Source: an uncultured Latescibacterota bacterium
GTDB taxonomy: Bacteria > Latescibacterota > UBA2968
Assembly (NCBI GenBank): GCA_958295785.1
Contig: OY282377.1
Span: 3,418,052 to 3,482,051 of the forward strand
Direction: 5' to 3'
Length of the DNA: 64,000 bases
A model generated the notes under the pieces. That model saw only the letters and a list, made by a program, of their open reading frames with translations, did no database searches and was not told the DNA's origin. The position numbers and the translations under genes are program-made. This document shows positions 17,926 through 29,026 of this stretch, piece after piece. Positions within the stretch are counted from its first letter, which is position 1. Every line of letters starts with the position of its first letter.

Positions 17926-18075
17926 ACGCCATTTTTTTATTTCAGAAATTTGCGACAGGCATGTTATATTGCTTTTCGTCAAGGCCCTCTCCCGCCTGCG
18001 AGAGACGACGAGATTAGGTCTCCCATTGCGGAACTTCGGAAGGGATCATCTAAATACCCAAGAACAGGAGAAAAC

Positions 18076-20217
18076 ATGTGGAAATGGACAAAAAATAAAA
18101 GCACTGCGGCACATGCGCTGTCAACGCTGATCGCGTTGATAGTGCTGGTCTTTGCGGGGCAGGCATCTGCCGGTCCCAATGCCAATGCGATGCTGTCGCT
18201 CGACCTGATTGCCAATGGCGGTGCGGGCAATCAGAGAAATAATGGCGTCACAACGGGCACGGTTTCTGGACGGGGCACGACCATTGCCATCGAAGTTTTC
18301 GCAACGGGCGTGACGACGTCTTTGCGCGGGATGCAGATCATATTCGATTTTGATGCGTCTCTGTTGACCTTTGTCAAGGCCGAGAACCGCGCGTTTTCCC
18401 TCACCATTCCAGAAAGGCAAAGGCCGGGCACGAACTTCGCATCGACGTCCCCAGTCACATTGGGGGCGTCGGGTTTTTTGGCACGCGCGGAGTTCACCAC
18501 GGCTGCGGATGTCACGGGCAGAGAATTTTCCATTGGCATAGCGACGGTGACTCTTTCTGAAAACGCGGCATTGACCGACACATTTATGCCGACAAACCGA
18601 ATCGCGTTTAATGCGACTTCCACCCGTTTTTCCCTTTCGCTGGATGCAGATGACGCGCCGGGCGATCAAGCAGTCGCCTCTGTGGAAGTCCGTCCCGAGA
18701 GCGTTGTTGCCATTCAGGTCTTCGGCGCAGAGATTCAAAATGCCACGGGCATTACCATTCGCTTTGAATACGACGCGACTCAAGTTGCCTACGAGAGGTT
18801 CGATAGCGGCGGCAGTGTGTTGCCCAATACCCGAGACATTCTGACCAGAGGTGCGAATCCGACCTCTGTCGAAATTGGCATTGCGTCTTTCGGCGGTCGC
18901 GCCACGGCCAACAGCGGGCTGTTTGGCGCGTTTCGCTTCCGCGCGACAGCGGCGTTTTCCGGCACGACCATTCGGTTGGTGAGGGCGGATCTTTGGCAAG
19001 GGGGGGTTCAAACGCAGACTGCGACGCCAGATGAGCGCGTTGAGTTGTTGCCTCCCGCGGCGCCCTCGCCCGACTTTGATGGCGATGGCACGGTTGGCTT
19101 TTCCGACTTTTTGGCATTTGCGGGCCTGTTCGGGGCACTTCAGGGCGATGGCACGTACCAGGCGCGGTACGATCTGGACAGCAATGGCGAGATTGGGTTT
19201 TCCGATTTTCTGATCTTCAGCAGCAGCTTTGGCACCCCCCCCGGCAGCGGTGGCGACACGGGGCGTCCCGACCTGATTGTCGAATCCCCTTCGGTCAGCG
19301 ATAGCACCTTGACGCCCGGGCAATCCTTCGCGCTGAACGCCACGGTTCGCAACGCGGGCACGGGTTCTTCTGCCGCGACGACCTCGCGCTATTACCGCTC
19401 GTCAGACGCGACGATCTCCACGAGTGACGCGCCAGTTGGTTCAGACAGAGTAGAGAGTCTTTCGGCTTCTGCCACCCGTGGCGTGTCGATCAGGCTGACA
19501 GCCCCACGGCGTGCAGACACGTATTATTACGGCGCGTGTGTGGTGCGCGTCAGCGGAGAGAGCGATACCGACAACAACTGCTCGGATGGGGTTCGAGTGA
19601 GAGTGCAAAGCGGCGGCGGCACAACACCGCCCCCGCCTAATAATGCGCGGTATTGGAGTTCTGATTCTAAATATCAAATCGCGTGGTCTCCTTCCCCGAG
19701 CGCGACTTTTTACCGGGTCTATTTCGACAGAGCGACTTTTTTTAACGTGAGTTGCCCAGGGGGCTGTAACCTCATCGCCACGGTGACGGACACGAGCGCG
19801 AGTCACGATGGCAGTGGATCTCGCATCGGATACTGGGTGCGGGCTTGCAATGATGCGGGCTGTTCGAATTATGTTCGCGCCGAGCGCGGCACTGCGAGCA
19901 GCGGCGGCACGGGTGGCGGGTCAGCCACCTATGCCCCGATATCGGGACTTCGCGTGTCAAACGGCCGGATTCAGTTGGCGTCTTTCTCAGTGGAGGACTG
20001 CACTGGATTGAATGGACTCGGTGGATACGAGGTACACACTTCAAAATGGCAGAGAAAATCCGGGACATCGTGGGTCGATATTCCCGGCACGGCACGCACG
20101 GGCGAAGTGTGTGCCTATTCAACCACCACCCCTGGCGAATACCGATTGGTGGGCGACGTGAGCATTAACGGCGTTAGAGGACTGCATTCCAGCGAGAATA
20201 CCTTCACTGTGAACTAA
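18076..20217 (+). CDS. Secreted multidomain protein: two cohesin-like domains, paired EF-hand/dockerin-like motif, CARDB-like Ig domain and Cys-containing C-terminal modules
   Basis: Signal peptide ending ASA; two related LSLD..GNQ/DQ domains; DFDGDGTVGFSDF and DLDSNGEIGFSDF; PDLIV...VRNAGTG...ESDTDNNC; AGGAG RBS. Confidence 0.75.
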   Translation: MWKWTKNKSTAAHALSTLIALIVLVFAGQASAGPNANAMLSLDLIANGGAGNQRNNGVTTGTVSGRGTTIAIEVFATGVTTSLRGMQIIFDFDASLLTFVKAENRAFSLTIPERQRPGTNFASTSPVTLGASGFLARAEFTTAADVTGREFSIGIATVTLSENAALTDTFMPTNRIAFNATSTRFSLSLDADDAPGDQAVASVEVRPESVVAIQVFGAEIQNATGITIRFEYDATQVAYERFDSGGSVLPNTRDILTRGANPTSVEIGIASFGGRATANSGLFGAFRFRATAAFSGTTIRLVRADLWQGGVQTQTATPDERVELLPPAAPSPDFDGDGTVGFSDFLAFAGLFGALQGDGTYQARYDLDSNGEIGFSDFLIFSSSFGTPPGSGGDTGRPDLIVESPSVSDSTLTPGQSFALNATVRNAGTGSSAATTSRYYRSSDATISTSDAPVGSDRVESLSASATRGVSIRLTAPRRADTYYYGACVVRVSGESDTDNNCSDGVRVRVQSGGGTTPPPPNNARYWSSDSKYQIAWSPSPSATFYRVYFDRATFFNVSCPGGCNLIATVTDTSASHDGSGSRIGYWVRACNDAGCSNYVRAERGTASSGGTGGGSATYAPISGLRVSNGRIQLASFSVEDCTGLNGLGGYEVHTSKWQRKSGTSWVDIPGTARTGEVCAYSTTTPGEYRLVGDVSINGVRGLHSSENTFTVN

Positions 20218-20221
20218 ACCC

Positions 20222-21508
20222 ATGCAACCCCTCGAAATCCAGCCCACGACAACGCCGATAGACGCAGAGGTCGCGATTCCGGGATCGAAAAGCATCACCA
20301 ACCGCGTGTTGCTGATCGCCGCGCTCGCAGATGGCGTCAGTCAGCTCGACAACGCGCTGATGAGCGACGACACGCGGTATATGGCCAATGCCTTGCGCGA
20401 CTTGGGCATTCGCATAGACGAAAACGCATCGGAGGCGACATTTCGCGTTTTTGGCACGGGCGGGCGCATCCCCGCTGAGAATGCGGAACTCCACATTGGC
20501 AACTCGGGCACGTCGGCGCGCTTTCTCACGGCCTATCTCGGCTTGGGCCATGGGACATATCTGATCGATGGCGTTGCGCGCATGCGCGAGCGGCCCATTC
20601 AAGACCTCCTCGACGGCCTTTCGCCCCTCGGCGCAACCGCGCGCTGCGAAGGCAAAGACGGGTTGTGTCCCCCCGTGCTCATGGTCGCTTCCGGCCTTCG
20701 GGGTGGGCAAACGACGATGAAGGGCAACAAGAGCAGCCAGTATTTCACGGCTTTGCTCCAAGTCGCGCCCTATGCCCAAACCGATGTTGAAATCTGCGTT
20801 GAGGGCGATTTGGTGTCCAAACCGTATATCGACCTCACCATCGCGGTGATGCGCGATTTTGGCGTTGAAGTCGTCTATCGCAATTACCGCTCTTTCACCG
20901 TACACGCGGGGCAGCGTTATCGGGCACGCTCCTATCAAATTGAACCCGATGCGTCCAATGCCTCGTATTTTTTTGCCGCCGCCGCGCTGACGGGTGGGCG
21001 CGTGCGCGTGCCCCATTTGACCGCGCAGTCGGTTCAGGGCGATGTGGGTTTTGTCGATATTTTGTCCAAAATGGGCTGTGAGGTCCGCAAAGACGCCGAT
21101 GGCATTGAGGTGCGCGGCACGGGACGCCTGTTGGGCATGGACATCGACATGAACGCCACGCCCGACGTGGTGCCCACGCTTTGCGCGCTGGCGCCCTTTG
21201 CTTCCGGGCCGGTCAACATCCGCAACGTAGCTGTTTTGCGCCTGCACGAAACCGACCGCATCGCCGCACTAAAGACCGAGTTGAACAAGCTCGGCATCCG
21301 CGTTGAGACCCGCGCCGACGGGCTTATGGTCTATCCATCAGATCGCATGCAACCCGCAGCGCTCGATACGTATGACGACCACCGCATGGCGATGAGCCTG
21401 TCGCTGATCGGCCTGAAAATTCCGGGCATTGTCATCAACGACCCCGATTGCGTCGCCAAAACATTTCCGACTTATTTTGATGTCTTGGAAAAGGCGATCA
21501 CGGATTAA
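20222..21508 (+). CDS. aroA: 3-phosphoshikimate 1-carboxyvinyltransferase
   Basis: PGSKSITNR, GNSGTSARF, SSQY, ETDRI, DDHRMAM and KTFP motifs. Confidence 0.97.
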   Translation: MQPLEIQPTTTPIDAEVAIPGSKSITNRVLLIAALADGVSQLDNALMSDDTRYMANALRDLGIRIDENASEATFRVFGTGGRIPAENAELHIGNSGTSARFLTAYLGLGHGTYLIDGVARMRERPIQDLLDGLSPLGATARCEGKDGLCPPVLMVASGLRGGQTTMKGNKSSQYFTALLQVAPYAQTDVEICVEGDLVSKPYIDLTIAVMRDFGVEVVYRNYRSFTVHAGQRYRARSYQIEPDASNASYFFAAAALTGGRVRVPHLTAQSVQGDVGFVDILSKMGCEVRKDADGIEVRGTGRLLGMDIDMNATPDVVPTLCALAPFASGPVNIRNVAVLRLHETDRIAALKTELNKLGIRVETRADGLMVYPSDRMQPAALDTYDDHRMAMSLSLIGLKIPGIVINDPDCVAKTFPTYFDVLEKAITD

Positions 21509-21828
21509 ACGGATTGCGCCGATGACGCGGAGGAAAGGCGAAAAGGCGAGCGGTGTGTGTAGGGGCGATGCCCCCGTGCTCGCCCAAAGATACAAGGCGG
21601 ATCACGGATTAAACGGATTGCGCCGATGACGCGAAGGAAAGATACAAGACGGGAGAGGTGAGAAACGTAGGGGCGATGCCCCCGTGCTCGCCCGAAACGA
21701 GAAACGACCACAGATAAACACAGATGAACGCAGATTGGGATCGCAGGTGGGGTTAATCCGCGCAATCCTTAAATCCGCGACAATCCGCGATCCAAACAAA
21801 GGTAGAGGCGTGGCCCCCGTGCCCGCCT
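21496..21828. repeat. Composite intergenic repeat cluster (34-bp direct repeat x2 plus three GTAG-REP palindromes)
   Basis: GATCACGGATTAAACGGATTGCGCCGATGACGCG at 21496 and 21600; REPs at 21559, 21667 and 21802. Confidence 0.8.
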
Positions 21829-21889
21829 TGTTTTTTTGGCGTGATGCAATGACAAACCATTCAAATGCCCATGCCGAAGATTATCCCAG

Positions 21890-22507
21890 GGAACTCAACC
21901 CGAGAGTGCGTTTGATCGTCTATGGGCAGGAACTCAACGACGAGACGTATGCGATCTGCAAGTCGGATATGATGATCAAGGGGCAAAACGCCAAAAACAT
22001 CCATCCCGGCAACAGCTTCACCGAAGGCGGCCTGCCCGAAGAACAACAACAGCGCGTTCTCGCGGTTCTCGCCGTGCAGGACAACACGCAGACATACAAA
22101 AACCGCGACGTGTTCGCGGGCTCACAGACGCTTTTACAAAGACGCGGGTGAACGTCACGACAGCCCAACTGAAGAATCTATCAAGCCTTGGGCGAACACA
22201 CGACGAAACCGCCGATGTTTACACCAATCGCAAGGGCGAGGCCGAAGCCGATTCGGAATTGCGTGACTATGAGAATGTGCCGTTGCGAGAAGATGTCGAC
22301 GCGTACTTTGAGCGCGAGGTGTTGCCGCATGTGCCCGACGCGTGGATCGACCACCGCAAGACCAAAGTGGGCTACGAAATCCCCTTCAATCGCCATTTCT
22401 ACATGTTCACACCGCCGCGTGCATTGACCGACATTGACGCGGATTTGAGAGGCGTGACCGCACGCATTGTCGAGATGATCGGAGGGCTTTCACATGGTAT
22501 GAAGTAG
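21890..22507 (+). pseudogene. hsdM: Internally deleted type I R-M HsdM remnants
   Basis: VYGQELNDETYAICKSDMMIKG..GNS is joined to the C-terminal DSELRDYENVPL...YFEREVLPHVPDAWID...VGYEIPFNRHFY. The catalytic NPPF region is missing. Confidence 0.8.
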
Positions 22508-22517
22508 ATGGGGCCGA

Positions 22518-25500
22518 CTATCCGTTAACCTCCTCCTCGATTTGCTCGCGGATATCTGCGGCCACCTCGAGCACTTCTGCCGGCGCACGAACCGCCTCGC
22601 CTGTTCGCTGGCGCAAGGCGATAATGAGCGGCACTAAAGTAGCGGCTTTCTCTGTGTCCTCCGCCAGAATCTCGACGAGATTGCGCTCCGAAGTTCCGCT
22701 TGCGATCAAGTTGATCACGCGCCCCATCATCTCGCGCATCATCGTTTCATTGCCCGGGGCGAACGCGGCATACATCGAGCGGAACGCATCCATGGCGGCA
22801 GGGCGTTTCTCTTGAACGAGCAGTGCCTTCGTTCTCATCCACCGCGCCCGCCATTTGAAAGCAACTTCATCGTCGCCAATCAAACCACCGAACCTGCGTT
22901 CGAGTTCGTCGCTCATATTCAGAGCCTCTTCGCCGAGACCGAGTTGGATTTGTGTCTCACCCTTGAAAGACAATGCGCTAGCGATCACTTCTTGAAGTTC
23001 TGGCGCGGTGCTATTTCCAAAACGCTTGAGCACTTCGTCGTAGAGGGCAACCGCCGCCTCGAAATCCCCCCGTTCCCCGCACTCAATTCCCTTGTTGAAC
23101 AATGCAGAGGCGACCTGTTCTTGAAGTTCTGGCCTGTCGCTATCGCCAAAACGCTTGACCACTTCGTCGTAGAGCGCGATTTCTGTCTCGAAATCCCCGC
23201 GTTGCCAGCATGCAATTCCCTTGTTGAACAATGCAGAGGCGACCCATTCTTGAAGTTCTGGCCTGTCGCTATCGCCAAAACGCTTGATCACCTCATCCCA
23301 AAGCGTGACCGCCGCCTCGAAATCCCCTTGTTTCCCGCACGCAATTCCCTTGACAAACAACGCCTTGGCGACCCGTTCTTGAAGTTCTGGCCTGTCGCTA
23401 TCGCCAAAGCGTTTGACCACCTCATCGTAGAGGGCAACCGCCGCCTCGAAATCCCCTCGTTCTCCGCACGCAAGTCCCTTGTTGAACAATGCAGAGGCGA
23501 CCCATTCTTGAAGTTCTGGCCTGTCGCTATCGCCAAAACGCTTGACCACCTCATCGTAGAGGGCAACCGCCGCCTCGAAATCCCCTCGTTCTCCGCACGC
23601 AAGTCCCTTGACAAACAACGCCTTGGCGACCCGTTCTTGAAGTTCTGGCCTGTCGCTATCGCCAAAGCGTTTGACCACCTCATCGTAGAGGGCAACCGCC
23701 GCCTCGAAATCCCCTCGTTCTCCGCACGCAAGTCCCTTGACAAACAACGCCTTGGCGACCCGTTCTTGAAGTTCTGGCGCGGTGCTATCGCCAAAGCGTT
23801 TGACCAACTCATCGTAGAGCGCGATTTCTGCCTCAAAATCCCCTCGTTCTCCGCACGCAAGTCCCTTGACAAACAACGCCTGGGCGACCTGTTCTTGAAG
23901 TTCTGGCCTGTCGCTATCGCCAAAACGCTTGACCAACTCATCGTAGAGCGCGATTTCTGTCTCAAAATCCCCTCGTTCCCCGCACACAATTCCCTTGTTG
24001 ACCAACGCCTTGGCGACCCGTTCTTGAAGTTCTGGCCTGTCGCTATCGCCAAAACGCTTGACCAACTCGTCGTAGAGCGCGATTTCTGTCTCAAAATCCC
24101 CTCGTTCCCCGCACACAATTCCCTTGTTGACCAACGCCTTGGCGACCCGTTCTTGAAGTTCTGGCCTGTCGCTATCGCCAAAACGCTTGACCAACTCGTC
24201 GTAGAGCGCGATTTCTGTCTCGAAATCCCCTTGTTCCCCGCATACAATTCCCTTGTTGACCAACGCCTTGGCGACCCATTCTTGAAGTTCTGGCGTGGTG
24301 CTATCGTCAAAACGCTTGACCAACTCGTCGTAGAGCGCGATTTCTGTCTCAAAATCCCCTCGTTCCCCGCACACAATTCCCTTGTTGAACAATGCATGGG
24401 CGACCCATTCTTGAAGTTCTGGCGTGGTGCTATCGTCAAAACGCTTGACCAACTCGTCGTAGAGCGCGATTTCTGTCTCAAAATCCCCTCGTTCCCCGCA
24501 CACAATTCCCTTGTTGACCAACGCCTTGGCGACCCGTTCTTGAAGTTCTGGCGCGGTGCTATTTCCAAAACGCTTGATCACCTCATCCCAAAGCGCGACC
24601 GCACTCTGAGAAGCGAAAGAATCGTTTGCGCCCTCGATAACTTTCTCGAAATCCCCCTCGTCGAATGCTATCGCGATCTCATCGGCAAGTCGTTGGGCCT
24701 CCCCGTCGTCGAGCGTCGCAGCCCGTTTGGATTCCAGCTCAATACCTGCCCGTCTCATGCCGAAAAAGAAATGCTCAATTTGCGGCAGTTCGACTATGGC
24801 CCGTTCAATTCCCTCGCGAATGGCTGGCGACTGCGCCGCCTCTGCAATCAACTTGCCGGACATCTCCGCCAGTTCGTCGCTGGTGTAGAACACGGCCATA
24901 AAGTGAATCAAGTCTCGCACGACAGCCGCTTCGTCGCGTTCGCGCCGCAACTTGTAGTAGATGCTGTAGAGGCGTTCTGCCGCAGAGTACTGCCGCTTCC
25001 GGCTGTTGCCTTCCACGATGACCGCGCCCCGGTTGACGAGCCTTCCGAGCAGGGTCGATACCTTTCGGATCTCCATGCGGGATCGCGCTGCAATTTCGCT
25101 GGTGCTCGACGGTTGCCACAGGTCGATCACAGCGAGATAGACGCGGCGCTCGGTCTTTGCGAAACCTTGCAGATGGGCGCGGAAATACTCGGTGTGATCG
25201 TCGATCAGCGTTACCAACTCTTCCATCAACTGGCGCAGGGAACGGTGCCGGGCGAACTCGGCGACAATGACCAAGAGGCGGGGATTGCCGCCGGTCAGGA
25301 TCTGAAGCGGCCTAATCGTGCGCGTGCTCACCGCGTCGCCGCTGACCATTTGCCACAGGCATTGGCACTCCTCGGTATCCAAGCGTTCCAACCCGACTAT
25401 TCGGAATAATTCGAAGAACGGCTGTTCCACATCGTCCAGCCCTTCAAAACGACTGGTGGCCGTGGCGAGCAACACGATTTGGGGTTCTGTCTGCAATACC

Positions 25501-26051
25501 TTGCGGAGCTTCCAGCCGAAATGGCTGTCCACATCAGAGCACAGATCTTGCAGGTTCTCGACCATGAGGACGAGTTGCTTTTCCAGCCGATCCGCCGTTT
25601 CCAAGACCGCGACGAGGGCGCGTTCTTCGAATTCCCTGCCGCGCCATTGGCTGGCTAAGTCGGCGTGCGTGGTTCGCAAGTCCCGGGCAATATCGGGATG
25701 GCTGTTGGCGATCTCCCCGGCGAGATAGAACAGCGCCTCGAGCCAGAAGTCGGCGGCATCAAATATCTCATGGCTCTCTTCCATGAACCGCACGGGCAAC
25801 AGCCGCCGGGCGAGCGCGTCATCGGTGCGTATCTCCGCAGCGGCACGCGCCAACAGCATGGTCTTCCCCCGGCCGCGAGGGCCGACGAGCAAGACGTGTT
25901 GGCACGATGGCGCACCGATGTTTTCTCGGAGAACCTCCATCGCGATGCCGAACTCGCGTTTCCTGACGACGAACTGTCTTATTACTTCTTCATCGGTCTG
26001 AAACGTCCCCGGATTGAACTTGCGGATCGTCCGCTCAAGCGGTTTGTTCAT
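22518..26051 (-). CDS. STAND-like P-loop ATPase with wHTH and 13 tandem 43-aa TPR-like repeats
   Basis: GPRGRGKT, VLMVENL, LTGGNPR, an HTH-like segment (STSEIAARSRMEIRKVSTLLGRLVNRG), then the repeat array; GAGGAG RBS. Confidence 0.85.
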   Translation of the reverse strand: MNKPLERTIRKFNPGTFQTDEEVIRQFVVRKREFGIAMEVLRENIGAPSCQHVLLVGPRGRGKTMLLARAAAEIRTDDALARRLLPVRFMEESHEIFDAADFWLEALFYLAGEIANSHPDIARDLRTTHADLASQWRGREFEERALVAVLETADRLEKQLVLMVENLQDLCSDVDSHFGWKLRKVLQTEPQIVLLATATSRFEGLDDVEQPFFELFRIVGLERLDTEECQCLWQMVSGDAVSTRTIRPLQILTGGNPRLLVIVAEFARHRSLRQLMEELVTLIDDHTEYFRAHLQGFAKTERRVYLAVIDLWQPSSTSEIAARSRMEIRKVSTLLGRLVNRGAVIVEGNSRKRQYSAAERLYSIYYKLRRERDEAAVVRDLIHFMAVFYTSDELAEMSGKLIAEAAQSPAIREGIERAIVELPQIEHFFFGMRRAGIELESKRAATLDDGEAQRLADEIAIAFDEGDFEKVIEGANDSFASQSAVALWDEVIKRFGNSTAPELQERVAKALVNKGIVCGERGDFETEIALYDELVKRFDDSTTPELQEWVAHALFNKGIVCGERGDFETEIALYDELVKRFDDSTTPELQEWVAKALVNKGIVCGEQGDFETEIALYDELVKRFGDSDRPELQERVAKALVNKGIVCGERGDFETEIALYDELVKRFGDSDRPELQERVAKALVNKGIVCGERGDFETEIALYDELVKRFGDSDRPELQEQVAQALFVKGLACGERGDFEAEIALYDELVKRFGDSTAPELQERVAKALFVKGLACGERGDFEAAVALYDEVVKRFGDSDRPELQERVAKALFVKGLACGERGDFEAAVALYDEVVKRFGDSDRPELQEWVASALFNKGLACGERGDFEAAVALYDEVVKRFGDSDRPELQERVAKALFVKGIACGKQGDFEAAVTLWDEVIKRFGDSDRPELQEWVASALFNKGIACWQRGDFETEIALYDEVVKRFGDSDRPELQEQVASALFNKGIECGERGDFEAAVALYDEVLKRFGNSTAPELQEVIASALSFKGETQIQLGLGEEALNMSDELERRFGGLIGDDEVAFKWRARWMRTKALLVQEKRPAAMDAFRSMYAAFAPGNETMMREMMGRVINLIASGTSERNLVEILAEDTEKAATLVPLIIALRQRTGEAVRAPAEVLEVAADIREQIEEEVNG
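22923..24599 (-). repeat. Coding tandem array, 13 x 129 bp
   Basis: TTCTTGAAGTTCTGG recurs every 129 bp (e.g. 22989, 23118). Confidence 0.95.
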
Positions 26052-26069
26052 TGGGTATCTCCTCAATTC

Positions 26070-27323
26070 TCAACGCTCGTCAGAAAAGCGACTTTCGAGA
26101 GGTTTGTAGTGATCGCGGAAACGCGCCGACCACCAGTCCTTCAGTAGCCGCGACGGGAAGCGATAGCCGTCGTCGCCGGCTTCGAGGTAGCCATCGTGCG
26201 CCAAGATGTCGAGTGCCTCGACGATGCAACCGGGGGCGTCGTCGAGCTTTGTGGAGTACTGCCGTTCGAGGCTCTGCCGTGCGTCGCTAGTGAACACATC
26301 TTGAGTGGCGGCCTCGGCGAGAATCTCCATGGCGACGGGGTAACTCTCGTCGTCCAGCCCCTCCTTGAGGCGCGTCTCGTAGTGGACGAGGACATTCTGC
26401 CCCGCAGGCCCGAGCAGTTGGGTGCGATAGACCTCGTCCACATCCTCCACCGTCACCCGCTCCCGATTCTGCATGATGGCAAAATCCCGCAGGCCTGCGA
26501 AAAAGAACTGGACATAGTGCGGAATACCGATGCCGAGTTTTTCGTACACGGCGTTTGCCACACCGTCGTCGATCCGCAACTCATGGCTCTCGGCGAGGCG
26601 TTCGAAACACTCGACACTAACTTCGCGGCACCACGGCCCCAAGCGAAAGGAGTAGAGATAGTTGATGCGGTCGGGTATGCCGAGACGTTGCACGAGCGGT
26701 GCGAGCCCGATACTGCCGGATACGATGAGAACCGGAGAGCCGCCTTTGAGTCCCTGAAACGCGCCGCGCAACCAACTGAGGAACTCATCGACCCGTCGTG
26801 CGCCATCGCTATCGCTATCGCTGAGCATCCGTTTGAGGAATATCGGCAGTTCGTCAATGACCAGGAGAATCGGTTTGTCGTGCTTGGCGCAAGCGCGAAT
26901 GAGCTGTTCCCCGCGGTGCCGCCAGTTTCCGGCGTCCAGCCCAGCGCGGATTTTCACGCCAAAGTCAAGGGCATTGACCTCCTTAATACTCTTCATGACC
27001 CGCCCTATGGTACTCTTCATTGCCCGCCCCATGGTACCGACGAGACGCGCTGCGAGGGAGCGAACTGGGTGCGCCGCCTTTGCGATAGCGGCGATTACAT
27101 CCTCTGGACAGGTCGCGCCTTCGACATCTGTAAAAAGGAAAACCCATCCTTGGGCCTCCAACTGTCGGCCGAGTTCCCGGACGACGCTGGTCTTGCCCAT
27201 GCGCCGCTGGCCGGTCAGCAGTACGTGGTTGCCGTCGCGAACTTGCGATTCCAGTATTTGCAACTCGGATTCACGGTCGAAAAAGTCGTCGCCATCCACC
27301 CAGCGACCAGTGGATACTTTCAT
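26070..27323 (-). CDS. P-loop ATP-binding protein (archaeal-ATPase/STAND-like), partner of the TPR-ATPase
   Basis: FFDRE, GQRRMGKTS, LVIDELP, SGSIGL and GIPHYVQ; GAGGAGG RBS before MKVSTG. Confidence 0.85.
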   Translation of the reverse strand: MKVSTGRWVDGDDFFDRESELQILESQVRDGNHVLLTGQRRMGKTSVVRELGRQLEAQGWVFLFTDVEGATCPEDVIAAIAKAAHPVRSLAARLVGTMGRAMKSTIGRVMKSIKEVNALDFGVKIRAGLDAGNWRHRGEQLIRACAKHDKPILLVIDELPIFLKRMLSDSDSDGARRVDEFLSWLRGAFQGLKGGSPVLIVSGSIGLAPLVQRLGIPDRINYLYSFRLGPWCREVSVECFERLAESHELRIDDGVANAVYEKLGIGIPHYVQFFFAGLRDFAIMQNRERVTVEDVDEVYRTQLLGPAGQNVLVHYETRLKEGLDDESYPVAMEILAEAATQDVFTSDARQSLERQYSTKLDDAPGCIVEALDILAHDGYLEAGDDGYRFPSRLLKDWWSARFRDHYKPLESRFSDER

Positions 27324-27360
27324 GAGAGCACCTCCTCGTTTGTCCATTTCATCAAAATTC

Positions 27361-27456
27361 AATACTCAACGGATATGTTGTCAACAGATAGGTTGACAAT
27401 GATTTTTCAACAAATTTAATACTCAACGGATATGTTGTCAACAGATAAGTTGACAA
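27361..27456. promoter_or_regulatory. Duplicated 39-bp unit (57-bp period), each containing the palindrome TTGTCAAC-N6-GTTGACAA
   Basis: Palindromes at 27378-27399 and 27435-27456, directly upstream of the ATPase pair. Confidence 0.7.
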
Positions 27457-27517
27457 AATGCCATGTCAACGATATTTTCTTGAATGCCCATCAAAAAGGG
27501 TGGATGCGGGCGTGCAG

Positions 27518-28213
27518 ATGGACACACTCAACCTCATCATCCTATCGCAGGACAAAACCTCGGCAGCGCGTGCGTTTTACCTGAAAATGGCGATTCGCAA
27601 AAGATGGAGTAAGCGGAAACTTGAACGCCCGTTTCGCGGGGCCTTATTCGAGCGGGTCGTGCTCAGTCCGCCAAAAATGTCAGCACTGCCGACACATATC
27701 CATTGGCGAGGCGTGGATACTTCAGATGTCAAACGCATGTGGTTCACGGCTTGGGAAAAGCAAAAACTGAAACTTTGTAAGGATGATCTGTTGGTCTGCG
27801 AAGGAGGGGATGTCGGTCGCAGTGCGCTTTGGAACGACGAGATTGAAGGTTGCTATATTCAAAACCCGCTCAATCGCGTTAGAGCACGAGAGAACGCAGA
27901 CACGCGGTTTCTTTTTTATTGGCTGTATTTCATCAAGCAGATAGGCTACATAGATATGATTTGTAACAAAGCGACCATTGCCCACTTTACTGTTGAGAAG
28001 GTTGAGGCGACCCCGTGAGTGCATCCTCTCCTCGACGAACAACAAAAAATCGCCGCATTCCTCGACAGGGAAACGGCGAAGATTGACGCTCTCATTGTGG
28101 AATGCGAAACCGCGATTGGGTTGCTCAAGGAACGCCGAACCGCGCTTATTTCGGCGGCGGTGACGGGCGAGATTGATGTGCGAGATGTCGAGCACGCGGA
28201 ACGCTACGGCTAA
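27518..28213 (+). pseudogene. hsdS: Chimeric remnant: YhcG/DUF1016 fragment fused to the last TRD and C-terminus of an HsdS
   Basis: ARAFYLKMAIRKRWSKRKLER..LFER (YhcG-like), then DDLLVCEGGDVGR (TRD), then a frameshift, then EQQKIAAFLDRETAKID...LKERRTALISAAVTG. Confidence 0.75.
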
Positions 28214-28789: not shown

Positions 28790-29026
28790 ATGACAATGAC
28801 CACCAAACCCACCTCGGAAAGAGATTTTGAGAACGCGATTGAAGCGTGGTTGTTGGAGCAGGCCGGCTACACCCGCGTTGACAATCGCCAATTCGACCCG
28901 GCACTCGCCCTCGACAAACACACCCTGCTCGCCTTTCTCAACGAGACACAGCCCGGTGCTTTGGACGCCCTCAAGCGCAGCGGCGGCAGCAATGTCGAGC
29001 AGGCCGTCGTCCATGAGGAAATTTGA
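28790..29026 (+). pseudogene. hsdR: N-terminal fragment of a type I HsdR
   Basis: SERDFENAIEAWLL..GY...FDPALALD..LLAFLNETQP is cut off at the second hsdS-end repeat. Confidence 0.7.

Follow-up and report, generated by a model that had tools for sequence, protein, structure and literature searches.

Here, we describe two adjacent genes, A and B, which lie on the minus strand within positions 22518..27456 of a stretch of 64,000 nucleotides (nt) from an uncultured Latescibacterota bacterium; the window denotes this whole stretch in the following. Protein B carries a long array of tetratricopeptide repeats (TPRs) with nearly identical units that vary mainly on one helix face and that change in number and content between close relatives. 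Protein A is a separate ATPase that accompanies B throughout the family. Considering all findings, A and B appear to form a self-contained, horizontally mobile and autoregulated two-gene module, most probably a real and so far undescribed sensor pair in the manner of NOD-like receptors (NLRs), whose specificity is altered by recombination. Its immune role is proposed by analogy and from a weak genomic context, and its output is likewise a proposal. As the most likely role, we presume defence or a conflict with phages or other mobile elements, and we put the probability of this at about one half. A conflict setting is preferred because it is the most economical one for a receptor that is mobile, patchily distributed and diversifying.

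Gene A (26070..27323) encodes 417 amino acids (aa) and gene B (22518..26051) encodes 1177 aa. The corresponding open reading frames (ORFs) were called on the minus strand at 26070..27362 and 22518..26066. The start of A was set to the ATG at 27323 because homologs measure 405-424 aa, and an AGGAGG motif is found 7 nt upstream. The start of B, the ATG at 26051, was assigned by homology, and the resulting product is identical to the cluster representative P0123. Both genes are co-oriented with 18 nt between them, and the host genome is one contig of 5.66 Mb.

The Repeat Array of Protein B

The array spans B residues 480-1038 (22938..24614, minus strand) and comprises 13 units of 43 aa (129 bp), the last of which is a degenerate cap, as delineated by Pfam, Tandem Repeats Finder and the structure model. 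Tandem Repeats Finder reports a period of 129 bp over 22989..24598 with 12.5 copies, 90% matches and 0% indels. Together with the translation of the assembled sequence, this bears out the 13 near-identical units that had been proposed in a first-pass annotation made from the DNA letters alone. The mean pairwise identity among the units is 0.79 for protein and 0.87 for DNA. An HMMER alignment to consensus-TPR crystal structures resolves each unit into a canonical TPR of 34 aa plus an insertion of 9 aa. This is in agreement with the Pfam scores of the array (TPR_1, 122 bits; TPR_16, 130.8 bits) and with the similarity of its model to the consensus-TPR superhelices 9qhb and 8chy (Foldseek, TMt 0.72-0.74). 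In the model, a unit consists of a short helix at positions 2-16 and a long helix at positions 22-41.

The differences among the units are confined to few positions. The unit alignment shows R/W/Q at position 27, K/H/Q/S at position 30, F/V and N/V at positions 33-34, and I/L and V/A/E at positions 37-38, which are positions 22, 25, 28-29 and 32-33 in the numbering of the first-pass annotation; the loop at unit positions 17-21 alternates between SDR, STA and STT. These sites had been listed correctly. Unit positions 4-6 and 12 of the short helix, which vary as a linked block (T-E-I..L versus A-A-V..V), and additional variation at unit positions 40-42 had been missed.

To relate these sites to the common TPR numbering, unit position 29 equals TPR position 1, 43 equals 15, 1-13 equal 16-28 and 27-28 equal 33-34. 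The long-helix variable sites 27, 30, 33, 34, 37, 38 and 41 thus represent TPR positions 33, 2, 5, 6, 9, 10 and 13. All seven fit into an arc of 140 degrees on a helical wheel, which only 0.9% of random subsets of 7 out of 20 positions achieve, and so the earlier suggestion of a single variable helix face holds. Passages of Magliery and Regan (PMC1261162) give TPR positions 2, 5, 9, 12, 13, 33 and 34 as the most variable ones, all on the concave face, and state that HOP binds its peptides through TPR positions 2, 5, 6, 9, 12 and 13. When 49 units of six proteins were pooled, four of the eight most variable positions belonged to this concave set of seven (hypergeometric P = 0.015), and the concave-set positions 5 and 12 ranked within the top twelve. 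Per-site entropy in the window's array also correlates with that in 16 independent homogeneous arrays (rho 0.42, p 0.005). By homology to canonical TPRs, the variable sites are predicted to lie mostly on the concave, ligand-binding face of the TPR superhelix.

Array Turnover between Relatives

Repeat number and content differ across related genomes, as had been anticipated for a receptor with changeable specificity. Three orthologs with 98% identity to the window's B across its first 480 aa, and with C-terminal domains that are almost the same, carry 9, 11 and 8 units versus 13 here; two further orthologs with 90-91% N-terminal identity have 8 and 6, all of these numbers being taken from separate assemblies and not from alleles of one population. 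Among the 49 pooled units, 42 distinct signatures of the seven face residues occur. Each unit of the window has its nearest neighbour within its own array (90-99% DNA identity) and is at best 74-85% identical to a unit in the array of the closest relative, G011, while the unique flanks of the array are 88.6% identical between both genomes. Units are hence closer to each other than to those of the ortholog, which indicates concerted evolution and a divergence of the arrays that is faster than that of their flanks. Two marks of fungal NLR arrays are thereby present, i.e., units that are about 80% or more identical and a repeat-number polymorphism among close relatives.

Across 120 B homologs with 1-14 units, the spacing is 43 aa in 577 out of 605 intervals. 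The 78 B ORFs extracted from the loci range from 0 to 27 units and from 509 to 1745 aa. The largest one is found in a gammaproteobacterial locus (L028:10001-21029), where B has 1745 aa and 27 units with an internal identity of 0.82. The same locus carries a second, divergent A-B pair (39% and 48% identity) convergent to the first, and a PDC-S01 (AAA_14/DUF4143) ATPase upstream.

For the window itself, short-read contigs from the four best-matching runs, all of one sample that is probably the source, break inside the array, and the order and count of the 13 units rest on the assembly. Contigs that end at 23045, 23372, 23509 and 24395 encode cassette variants foreign to the window's array. One of these loose ends shows the 'LC' type that is found in the orthologs P0124 and P0125. 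This suggests that coexisting strains carry other arrays. Of the words sampled from the stretch, only 6-7% are present in four runs labelled 'sponge metagenome' and in one other run, and no RNA run is listed as containing the stretch.

Domain Architecture of Both Proteins

Protein A was characterised by its translation, homologs, Pfam and an AlphaFold model. Its Walker A motif (GQRRMGKT) and its Walker B motif (LLVIDELP, with D157-E158) are invariant among 69 aligned sequences. Pfam assigns AAA_16 with 41.9 bits, and ATPase_2 reaches 24.8, under its cut-off of 33.2. The family profile matches the archaeal Walker-type ATPases 2qen and 2fna. These are also the best full-length Foldseek matches of the AlphaFold model (1.2e-9 and 3.1e-9; mean predicted local distance difference test, pLDDT, 80.3), followed by the archaeal ORC/Cdc6 structures 2v1u (ORC1-DNA, 1.7e-8), 1w5t (1.4e-7) and 1fnn (2.7e-7). 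Since these matches extend over the full length, A is modelled as an AAA+ base, a lid and a C-terminal winged helix, i.e., with an ORC/Cdc6-like AAA+ fold. Mutual similarity of A and B is confined to the surroundings of the P-loop.

Protein B begins, after only about 25 residues, with an NTPase core (approximately aa 26-220; 25392..25976, minus strand). Pfam AAA_16 covers aa 26-170, and the Walker A motif GPRGRGKT is invariant; the Walker-B strand closes with an invariant E165-N166 and without a DE pair. A winged helix-turn-helix of the TrmB/MarR type follows at aa 296-358 (24978..25166, minus strand), where Pfam TrmB scores 27.5 bits versus a cut-off of 25.6. TrmB is matched by 32 of 36 B family members, and the profile of this domain matches the MarR structure 2fa5 (1.7e-4). 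Behind the array, a helical domain of about 139 aa (22521..22937, minus strand) is defined by its family-wide conservation with near-invariant columns; it has no Pfam match and matches nothing in the Atlas at a level of at least 0.9. The model of B (pLDDT 78.5 overall, above 90 along the array, below 50 at residues 233-299) shows a five-strand core, a helical lid, the winged helix (approximately aa 299-355), a helical arm and the TPR array in this order.

In VIA-align, the N-terminal 370 residues or so of this model align best to Cdc6/Orc1 structures. The match to 2qby_B, which stems from a heterodimer on origin DNA, reaches a Z of 15.7 with 278 aligned residues and a root mean square deviation (rmsd) of 9.2 over model residues 4-372. 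The matches to 1fnn_B and 1w5s_A both reach a Z of 14.8, the latter with 214 aligned residues and an rmsd of 4.0. The N-terminal module of B is therefore modelled with an ORC/Cdc6-like fold as well. Foldseek with the whole of B returned TPR proteins only.

Both proteins had initially been described as STAND-like ATPases. The STAND clade of NTPases is said to have been defined by Leipe, Koonin and Aravind in 2004. According to its model, B has the domain order of STAND proteins, i.e., NTPase, helical domain, winged helix and C-terminal repeat sensor, and Pfam and the model agree on the proposed sequence of ATPase, winged helix-turn-helix and repeats. Of the 36 B family members, all match AAA_16, 33 match nSTAND_NTPase5 (best 2e-5), seven NPHP3_N and three NACHT, with all STAND profiles sub-threshold. 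No STAND structure was among the top 50 VIA-align matches of the whole-B model, where the N-terminal module matched ORC/Cdc6 only. Because of these sub-threshold profiles and the ORC/Cdc6-like fold, STAND membership is not established for A or B, and 'STAND-like' is a fair label for the architecture of B but not a family assignment.

Pairing and Distribution of the Family

In all of 80 loci taken from species-representative genomes, the N-terminus of B directly follows A on the same strand, and the C-terminal domain of B was found by tblastn in 76 of them. The strict pairing of two ATPase genes, proposed from a single locus, thus applies to the whole sample. The loci span Latescibacterota, Acidobacteriota, Gemmatimonadota, Binatia, Alpha- and Gammaproteobacteria, Nitrospirota, Nitrospinota, Spirochaetia, Chloroflexota, Thermodesulfobacteriota and Rhodothermales, and all source genomes are metagenome-assembled. 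A and B have thousands of relatives each at about 70% identity. With a threshold of E<=1e-30, the profile of A matches 483 clusters (50% identity) among 1.84 billion representatives, and with E<=1e-10 it matches 1620; nearly all full-length members measure 400-425 aa. Within the phylum of the window, A was found in 30 out of 151 sampled genomes and in 7 out of 46 genera. This patchy presence, together with identities of 60-73% across phyla, indicates horizontal transfer.

No match was obtained in 50,697 phage records, and four distant ones (20-26% identity) were obtained in 72,556 plasmid records. Collections of cultured organisms contain almost no family members. A distant pair with 26% identity, in which the gene for an AAA-TPR protein comes after that for an ATP-binding protein as in the layout here, is located on the Clostridium estertheticum plasmid NZ_CP086244.1 (46465-50515), where it adjoins genes for a DUF3800 protein, a GIY-YIG nuclease and an integrase.

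Several genomes of the same genus carry a paralogous A-B1-B2 locus at a syntenic site (L014-L022: G017, G006, G016, G004, G019, G015, G008 and G010). This site is bordered by a Reg_prop histidine kinase or a GH113-like gene on one side and by a sigma-54 response regulator or YdjM on the other. A MazEF pair (L033:13854-14611) or an ORF with a Fic domain (L017:11515-11904) stands between B1 and B2 in two loci.

A long TPR array in a family that is known almost only from uncultured environmental genomes also recalls eukaryote-like TPR proteins that serve in the interaction with a host organism. We regard such a function of B as far-fetched. The protein starts with a cytoplasmic NTPase module, no export signal is evident in its first 25 residues, all 80 out of 80 loci pair it with a second ATPase, and it has an operator of its own, which is described in the next section.

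A Putative Operator Upstream of Gene A

The promoter region of the pair (27324..27480, minus strand) contains two direct repeats of 57 bp, each of which includes an TTGTCAAC-N6-GTTGACAAC element overlapping a TTGACA -35 box. A third inverted repeat is found at 27449-27470, just upstream of the two direct repeats. This element is conserved and new relative to the first-pass annotation. A CAAC-N5-7-GTTG palindrome occurs at most 200 nt upstream of A in 71 out of 80 loci, in 54 of them with at least two copies, and often appears as GTTGACAAC overlapping the -35 box. The density of the motif is 8.96 per kb upstream of A versus 0.064 per kb elsewhere in the loci, a 140-fold difference. Even the pair on the Clostridium plasmid has a near-copy of the operator core upstream. 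That such an element accompanies the module from phylum to phylum implies that the module itself encodes a DNA-binding protein. ORC/Cdc6 relatives are known to bind inverted repeats.

We searched the 5.66-Mb genome with a pattern of 17 specified bases and at most two mismatches. It returned the two exact sites described here and one site with two mismatches elsewhere; the reversed pattern, used as a control in the same genome, gave one hit. Together, these sequence data support an autoregulation of the pair through this putative palindromic operator and disfavour a wider regulon in this genome.

These findings also bear on two further explanations. The pair could be a non-immune, ligand-responsive transcription switch of an ORC/Cdc6-like or MalT-like kind, which senses a cellular or environmental protein or peptide by means of the TPR array. 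The conserved operator fits this idea, as do the TrmB/MarR-type domain of B, which exceeds the Pfam cut-off, and the ORC/Cdc6-like folds, as archaeal proteins of this kind form heterodimers on DNA (see 2qby_B and 2v1u above). Moreover, domain III of MalT is among the matches of the array (Z 14.2), and in genomes of the same genus the locus has a histidine kinase on one side and a sigma-54 response regulator on the other. On the other hand, apart from one imperfect site, the operator in this genome is present at the promoter of the module only, the neighbours are not conserved across 34 loci, and the distribution is patchy and crosses phyla. A fixed regulator would also not be expected to alter its unit number and ligand-face residues between orthologs with 98% identity. 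Altogether, a transcription switch appears improbable, if still a serious alternative.

We consider it very unlikely that the pair serves a mobile element in its maintenance, as a replication initiator or as an addiction module, with the repeats beside the gene acting in an iteron-like manner. Direct repeats that contain inverted repeats, within an A+T-rich stretch upstream of A, recall origin boxes; A and B both have ORC/Cdc6-like folds; and relaxase, transposase or integrase genes adjoin some loci. However, most loci are bare two-gene chromosomal units without mobile-element genes among the four nearest ORFs, and the phage and plasmid records hold next to no relatives. The position of the repeats, across a sigma-70-like -35 box and shortly before the ribosome-binding site, is that of an operator, and a diversifying TPR face has no place in an initiator.

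Genomic Neighbourhood and the Case for Defence

The neighbours of the pair were surveyed in 34 loci (every second of 67 with full flanks), with the two nearest ORFs on each side and a PADLOC hit defined by E<=1e-10. PADLOC-positive were 17 out of 136 ORFs in 14 loci. The matches are specific in eleven loci and include type I and IIG restriction-modification, DrmD together with AbiEi, AbiEii, SoFic, PDC-S01, PDC-M02, PDC-M03, PDC-S45 and HEC-09. Pfam additionally finds toxin-antitoxin pairs, transposases and a relaxase among the neighbours. No conserved third gene stands beside the pair in the 34 loci. The far ends of the same loci, which served as a control, were equally rich in defence genes (17 out of 131 ORFs), and for this reason a genome baseline was added. 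At arbitrary round-number positions in four genomes of the same genus (G000, G017, G004 and G011), which differ from the genomes of most loci, 9 out of 139 ORFs were PADLOC-positive. These four genomes abound in defence-type genes, and the baseline matches (L105-L124) comprise TmtA, DrmD, HEC-01A/B, PDC-S03, a TnpB/Cas12f-like gene and methyltransferases.

A number of observations speak against a diversified defence receptor. With an odds ratio of approximately 2.1 (p = 0.10 for near neighbours, 0.06 when pooled), the enrichment in defence neighbourhoods expected from the initial proposal is about two-fold and not significant against the baseline, and housekeeping genes border many loci according to Pfam. 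In PADLOC 2.0, B matches none of the families, and relatives of A and B are likewise without a system match; for A, PADLOC gave only weak P-loop matches (mad8, 2e-5; PDC-S01, 1.6e-3). Pfam, NCBIfam and PADLOC detect no effector domain in A or B. A search for fused or longer forms of A gave a single A-TPR fusion and no effector fusion, which accords with the earlier remark that no enzymatic effector is recognisable. B2-type paralogs of 815-825 aa with degenerate repeats occur without A in some genomes of the same genus. Concerning the array, 6 out of 78 B proteins are without any recognisable unit, and an internal identity of at least 70% is reached in only 22 of 62 longer arrays of the homolog set or 6 of 32 of the locus ORF set. 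The window's B is without a segment of 30 aa that precedes the first unit in the five closest orthologs (a degenerate capping helix, missing at approximately 24600-24630, B residues 475-485, with a junction that resembles an intra-array deletion). The 16 independent arrays vary also at short-helix positions 1-3, 5 and 8, which are outside the canonical concave set, and the assignment of the face relies on canonical TPRs and the superhelix match rather than on exposure computed from the model. Finally, the ratio of non-synonymous to synonymous polymorphism (pN/pS) within the window's array favours variation on the helix face, with 1.31 at the seven long-helix sites as opposed to 0.32 at a further 31 and 0.09 at five sites of the short helix, but it is a descriptive contrast over seven sites only and is confounded by recombination.

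Alternatively, the near-identical array could be a neutral by-product of recent tandem duplication and slippage, or in part a product of the assembly, with variation that has no function. The homogeneity of arrays rises with their length (Spearman rho 0.62, p 1.7e-7), the array has collapsed to zero units in some genomes, the short-read contigs cannot confirm the unit order, and the overall pN/pS of the array is 0.44. Against this stand the intact frame over 13 units with 0% indels and the 43-aa spacing that is kept throughout the 120 homologs. Non-synonymous change clusters on one helix face at positions common to independent arrays, and comparable arrays are present in independent assemblies, with the genome itself being one contig. 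A neutral or artificial origin of the variation is thus unlikely.

In summary of these arguments, the proposed defence receptor that is diversified by repeat recombination is upheld with respect to array turnover and concerted evolution, and its defence context is weak. We therefore rate the association of the pair with defence as suggestive.

Proposed Mode of Action

For the reading as a defence or conflict receptor, we suggest the following course of events. B would act as an intracellular receptor that binds a variable ligand, probably a protein, through its concave TPR face. Unequal recombination and gene conversion among the 129-bp units would reprogramme its specificity in the same way as in fungal NLRs. 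In the resting state, A, B or both may occupy the operator and hold the operon repressed. Binding of a ligand would then switch the nucleotide state and drive the assembly of A-B hetero-oligomers, where the E-N Walker B of B suggests a slow switch and the DE of A an active ATPase. The output, as the least supported step, might be DNA-directed via the ATPase and winged helix of A and not enzymatic. A non-enzymatic output is proposed because neither A nor B nor any conserved neighbour provides an effector domain.

Carried further, the pair could represent a new build of immune receptor. Two ORC/Cdc6-like ATPases would sit on DNA, one of them would read invader proteins with a recombining TPR superhelix, and execution would proceed by blocking or loading replication or transcription templates. 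We put this forward as a tentative and rather doubtful possibility.

Relation to Known Systems

Fungal NLRs of the HET-E type and the NB-ARC-TPR proteins of Podospora are the closest parallel to the array. They share near-identical units of about 42-43 aa, differences in repeat number, concerted evolution and concave-face variation, and the array model matches the '42PR' structure (PDB 4y6w) with a VIA-align Z of 14.2. Passages of Dyrka 2014 describe the repeats of fungal NLRs as mostly 42-aa TPRs that number from 2 to more than 14 and whose concave side carries the sites under selection. In contrast, the pair described here is bacterial, has ORC/Cdc6-like NTPases with no detectable NACHT or NB-ARC domain, is without an N-terminal effector, and possesses an obligate separate ATPase partner as well as its own operator.

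Avs and other prokaryotic STAND-TPR sensors resemble B in that they combine a P-loop NTPase and a winged helix with a TPR-like sensor at the C-terminus, and some loci of the pair lie in defence islands. The pair differs in its two genes, its sub-threshold STAND profiles and in being without a PADLOC match or an effector. Furthermore, Avs sensors are described, in the portions of the literature used here, as fixed folds for conserved phage proteins, whereas B presents an array of recombining cassettes. According to a passage of the Dyrka 2020 preprint, there are bacterial NLRs whose TPR or WD units are 80-90% identical, and these 'might' diversify in a similar way; hence the general idea is already in print. 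A 2026 survey of prokaryotic STAND proteins distinguishes 589 clades, most of them with TPR-like sensors. The diversity treated by Kaur et al. 2020 is, in the passages concerned, driven by retroelements and module acquisition and not by repeat shuffling. We found no description of the two-gene family, the ORC/Cdc6-like partner, the operator or the array turnover in the literature, although the supplementary tables of the 2026 survey may include the clade.

Archaeal Orc1/Cdc6 proteins and the PF01637 proteins 2qen and 2fna share the AAA+, lid and winged-helix fold and an inverted-repeat element beside the gene, and 2qby is a precedent for a heterodimer on DNA. Here, however, the host is bacterial, a replicon context is absent, one partner is fused to TPRs, and ATPase_2 remains below its cut-off in A. 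STAND regulators of the MalT type resemble the pair in their NTPase, winged helix, helical-repeat sensor (see the match to MalT domain III above) and repeated DNA boxes; they differ in that the pair has no LuxR-type DNA-binding domain, no detected regulon, a diversifying sensor and the form of a mobile module. In plants, paired sensor and helper NLRs divide sensing and execution between two adjacent NTPase genes. The likeness to A and B consists in two adjacent NTPase genes that may divide labour, and the difference in a homology to the plant proteins that does not go beyond the P-loop fold.

If the proposed reading is true, the reshuffling of repeats for new specificities, as in fungi, also runs in bacteria, in a compact module that crosses phyla. 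An effector-free pair with a conserved operator would be a tractable case for studying ATPase signalling without an enzyme, and ORC/Cdc6-like proteins in immunity. The near-ideal 43-aa TPR units are natural scaffolds for the engineering of binders. Should the immune role fail, an unusually mobile, autoregulated ORC-like module with about 480 clusters at 50% identity is still at hand.

Decayed Restriction Genes around the Pair

The pair lies in reverse orientation between remnants of a restriction system on the plus strand. A fragment at 21810..22477, which has undergone internal deletions, derives from the methyltransferase part (HsdM) of a type I-like HsdM-HsdS gene (tblastn with the HsdM-S of G011, residues 36-703 with gaps; a fragment of Pfam N6_Mtase). 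On the other side, 27695..28183 encodes an HsdS-like C-terminal specificity remnant of the same gene (84% identity by tblastn, residues 774-936 of HsdM-S). Further to the right, 28796..29011 encodes 72 aa of the N-terminus of HsdR (68% identity by tblastn), and traces of an AbiC-like gene are found right of A alongside these HsdS and HsdR fragments. The two-gene arrangement on the minus strand between hsdM and hsdS remnants had been recognised correctly, with both ORFs in place and tblastn fragments on each side. An intact set of hsdR, hsdM and hsdS is absent around the pair; tblastn of the flanks with the G011 proteins gave fragments only.

In G011, which is about 90% identical, the pair is flanked by an intact HsdR, an AbiC-like gene and HsdM-S, with GmrSD nearby. 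As the restriction genes are intact there and fragmentary here, the restriction system has decayed while A and B stayed open. The omega values against the G011 ortholog are 0.27 for A, 0.25 for the N-terminal module of B and 0.55 for its C-terminal domain. A and B are thus under purifying selection in this genome despite their decayed restriction neighbours.

At a greater distance to the left, a protein of 755 aa with CARDB and cohesin-like domains is encoded on the plus strand at 17950-20217, between oligopeptide-type ABC permeases and aroA (20222-21508).

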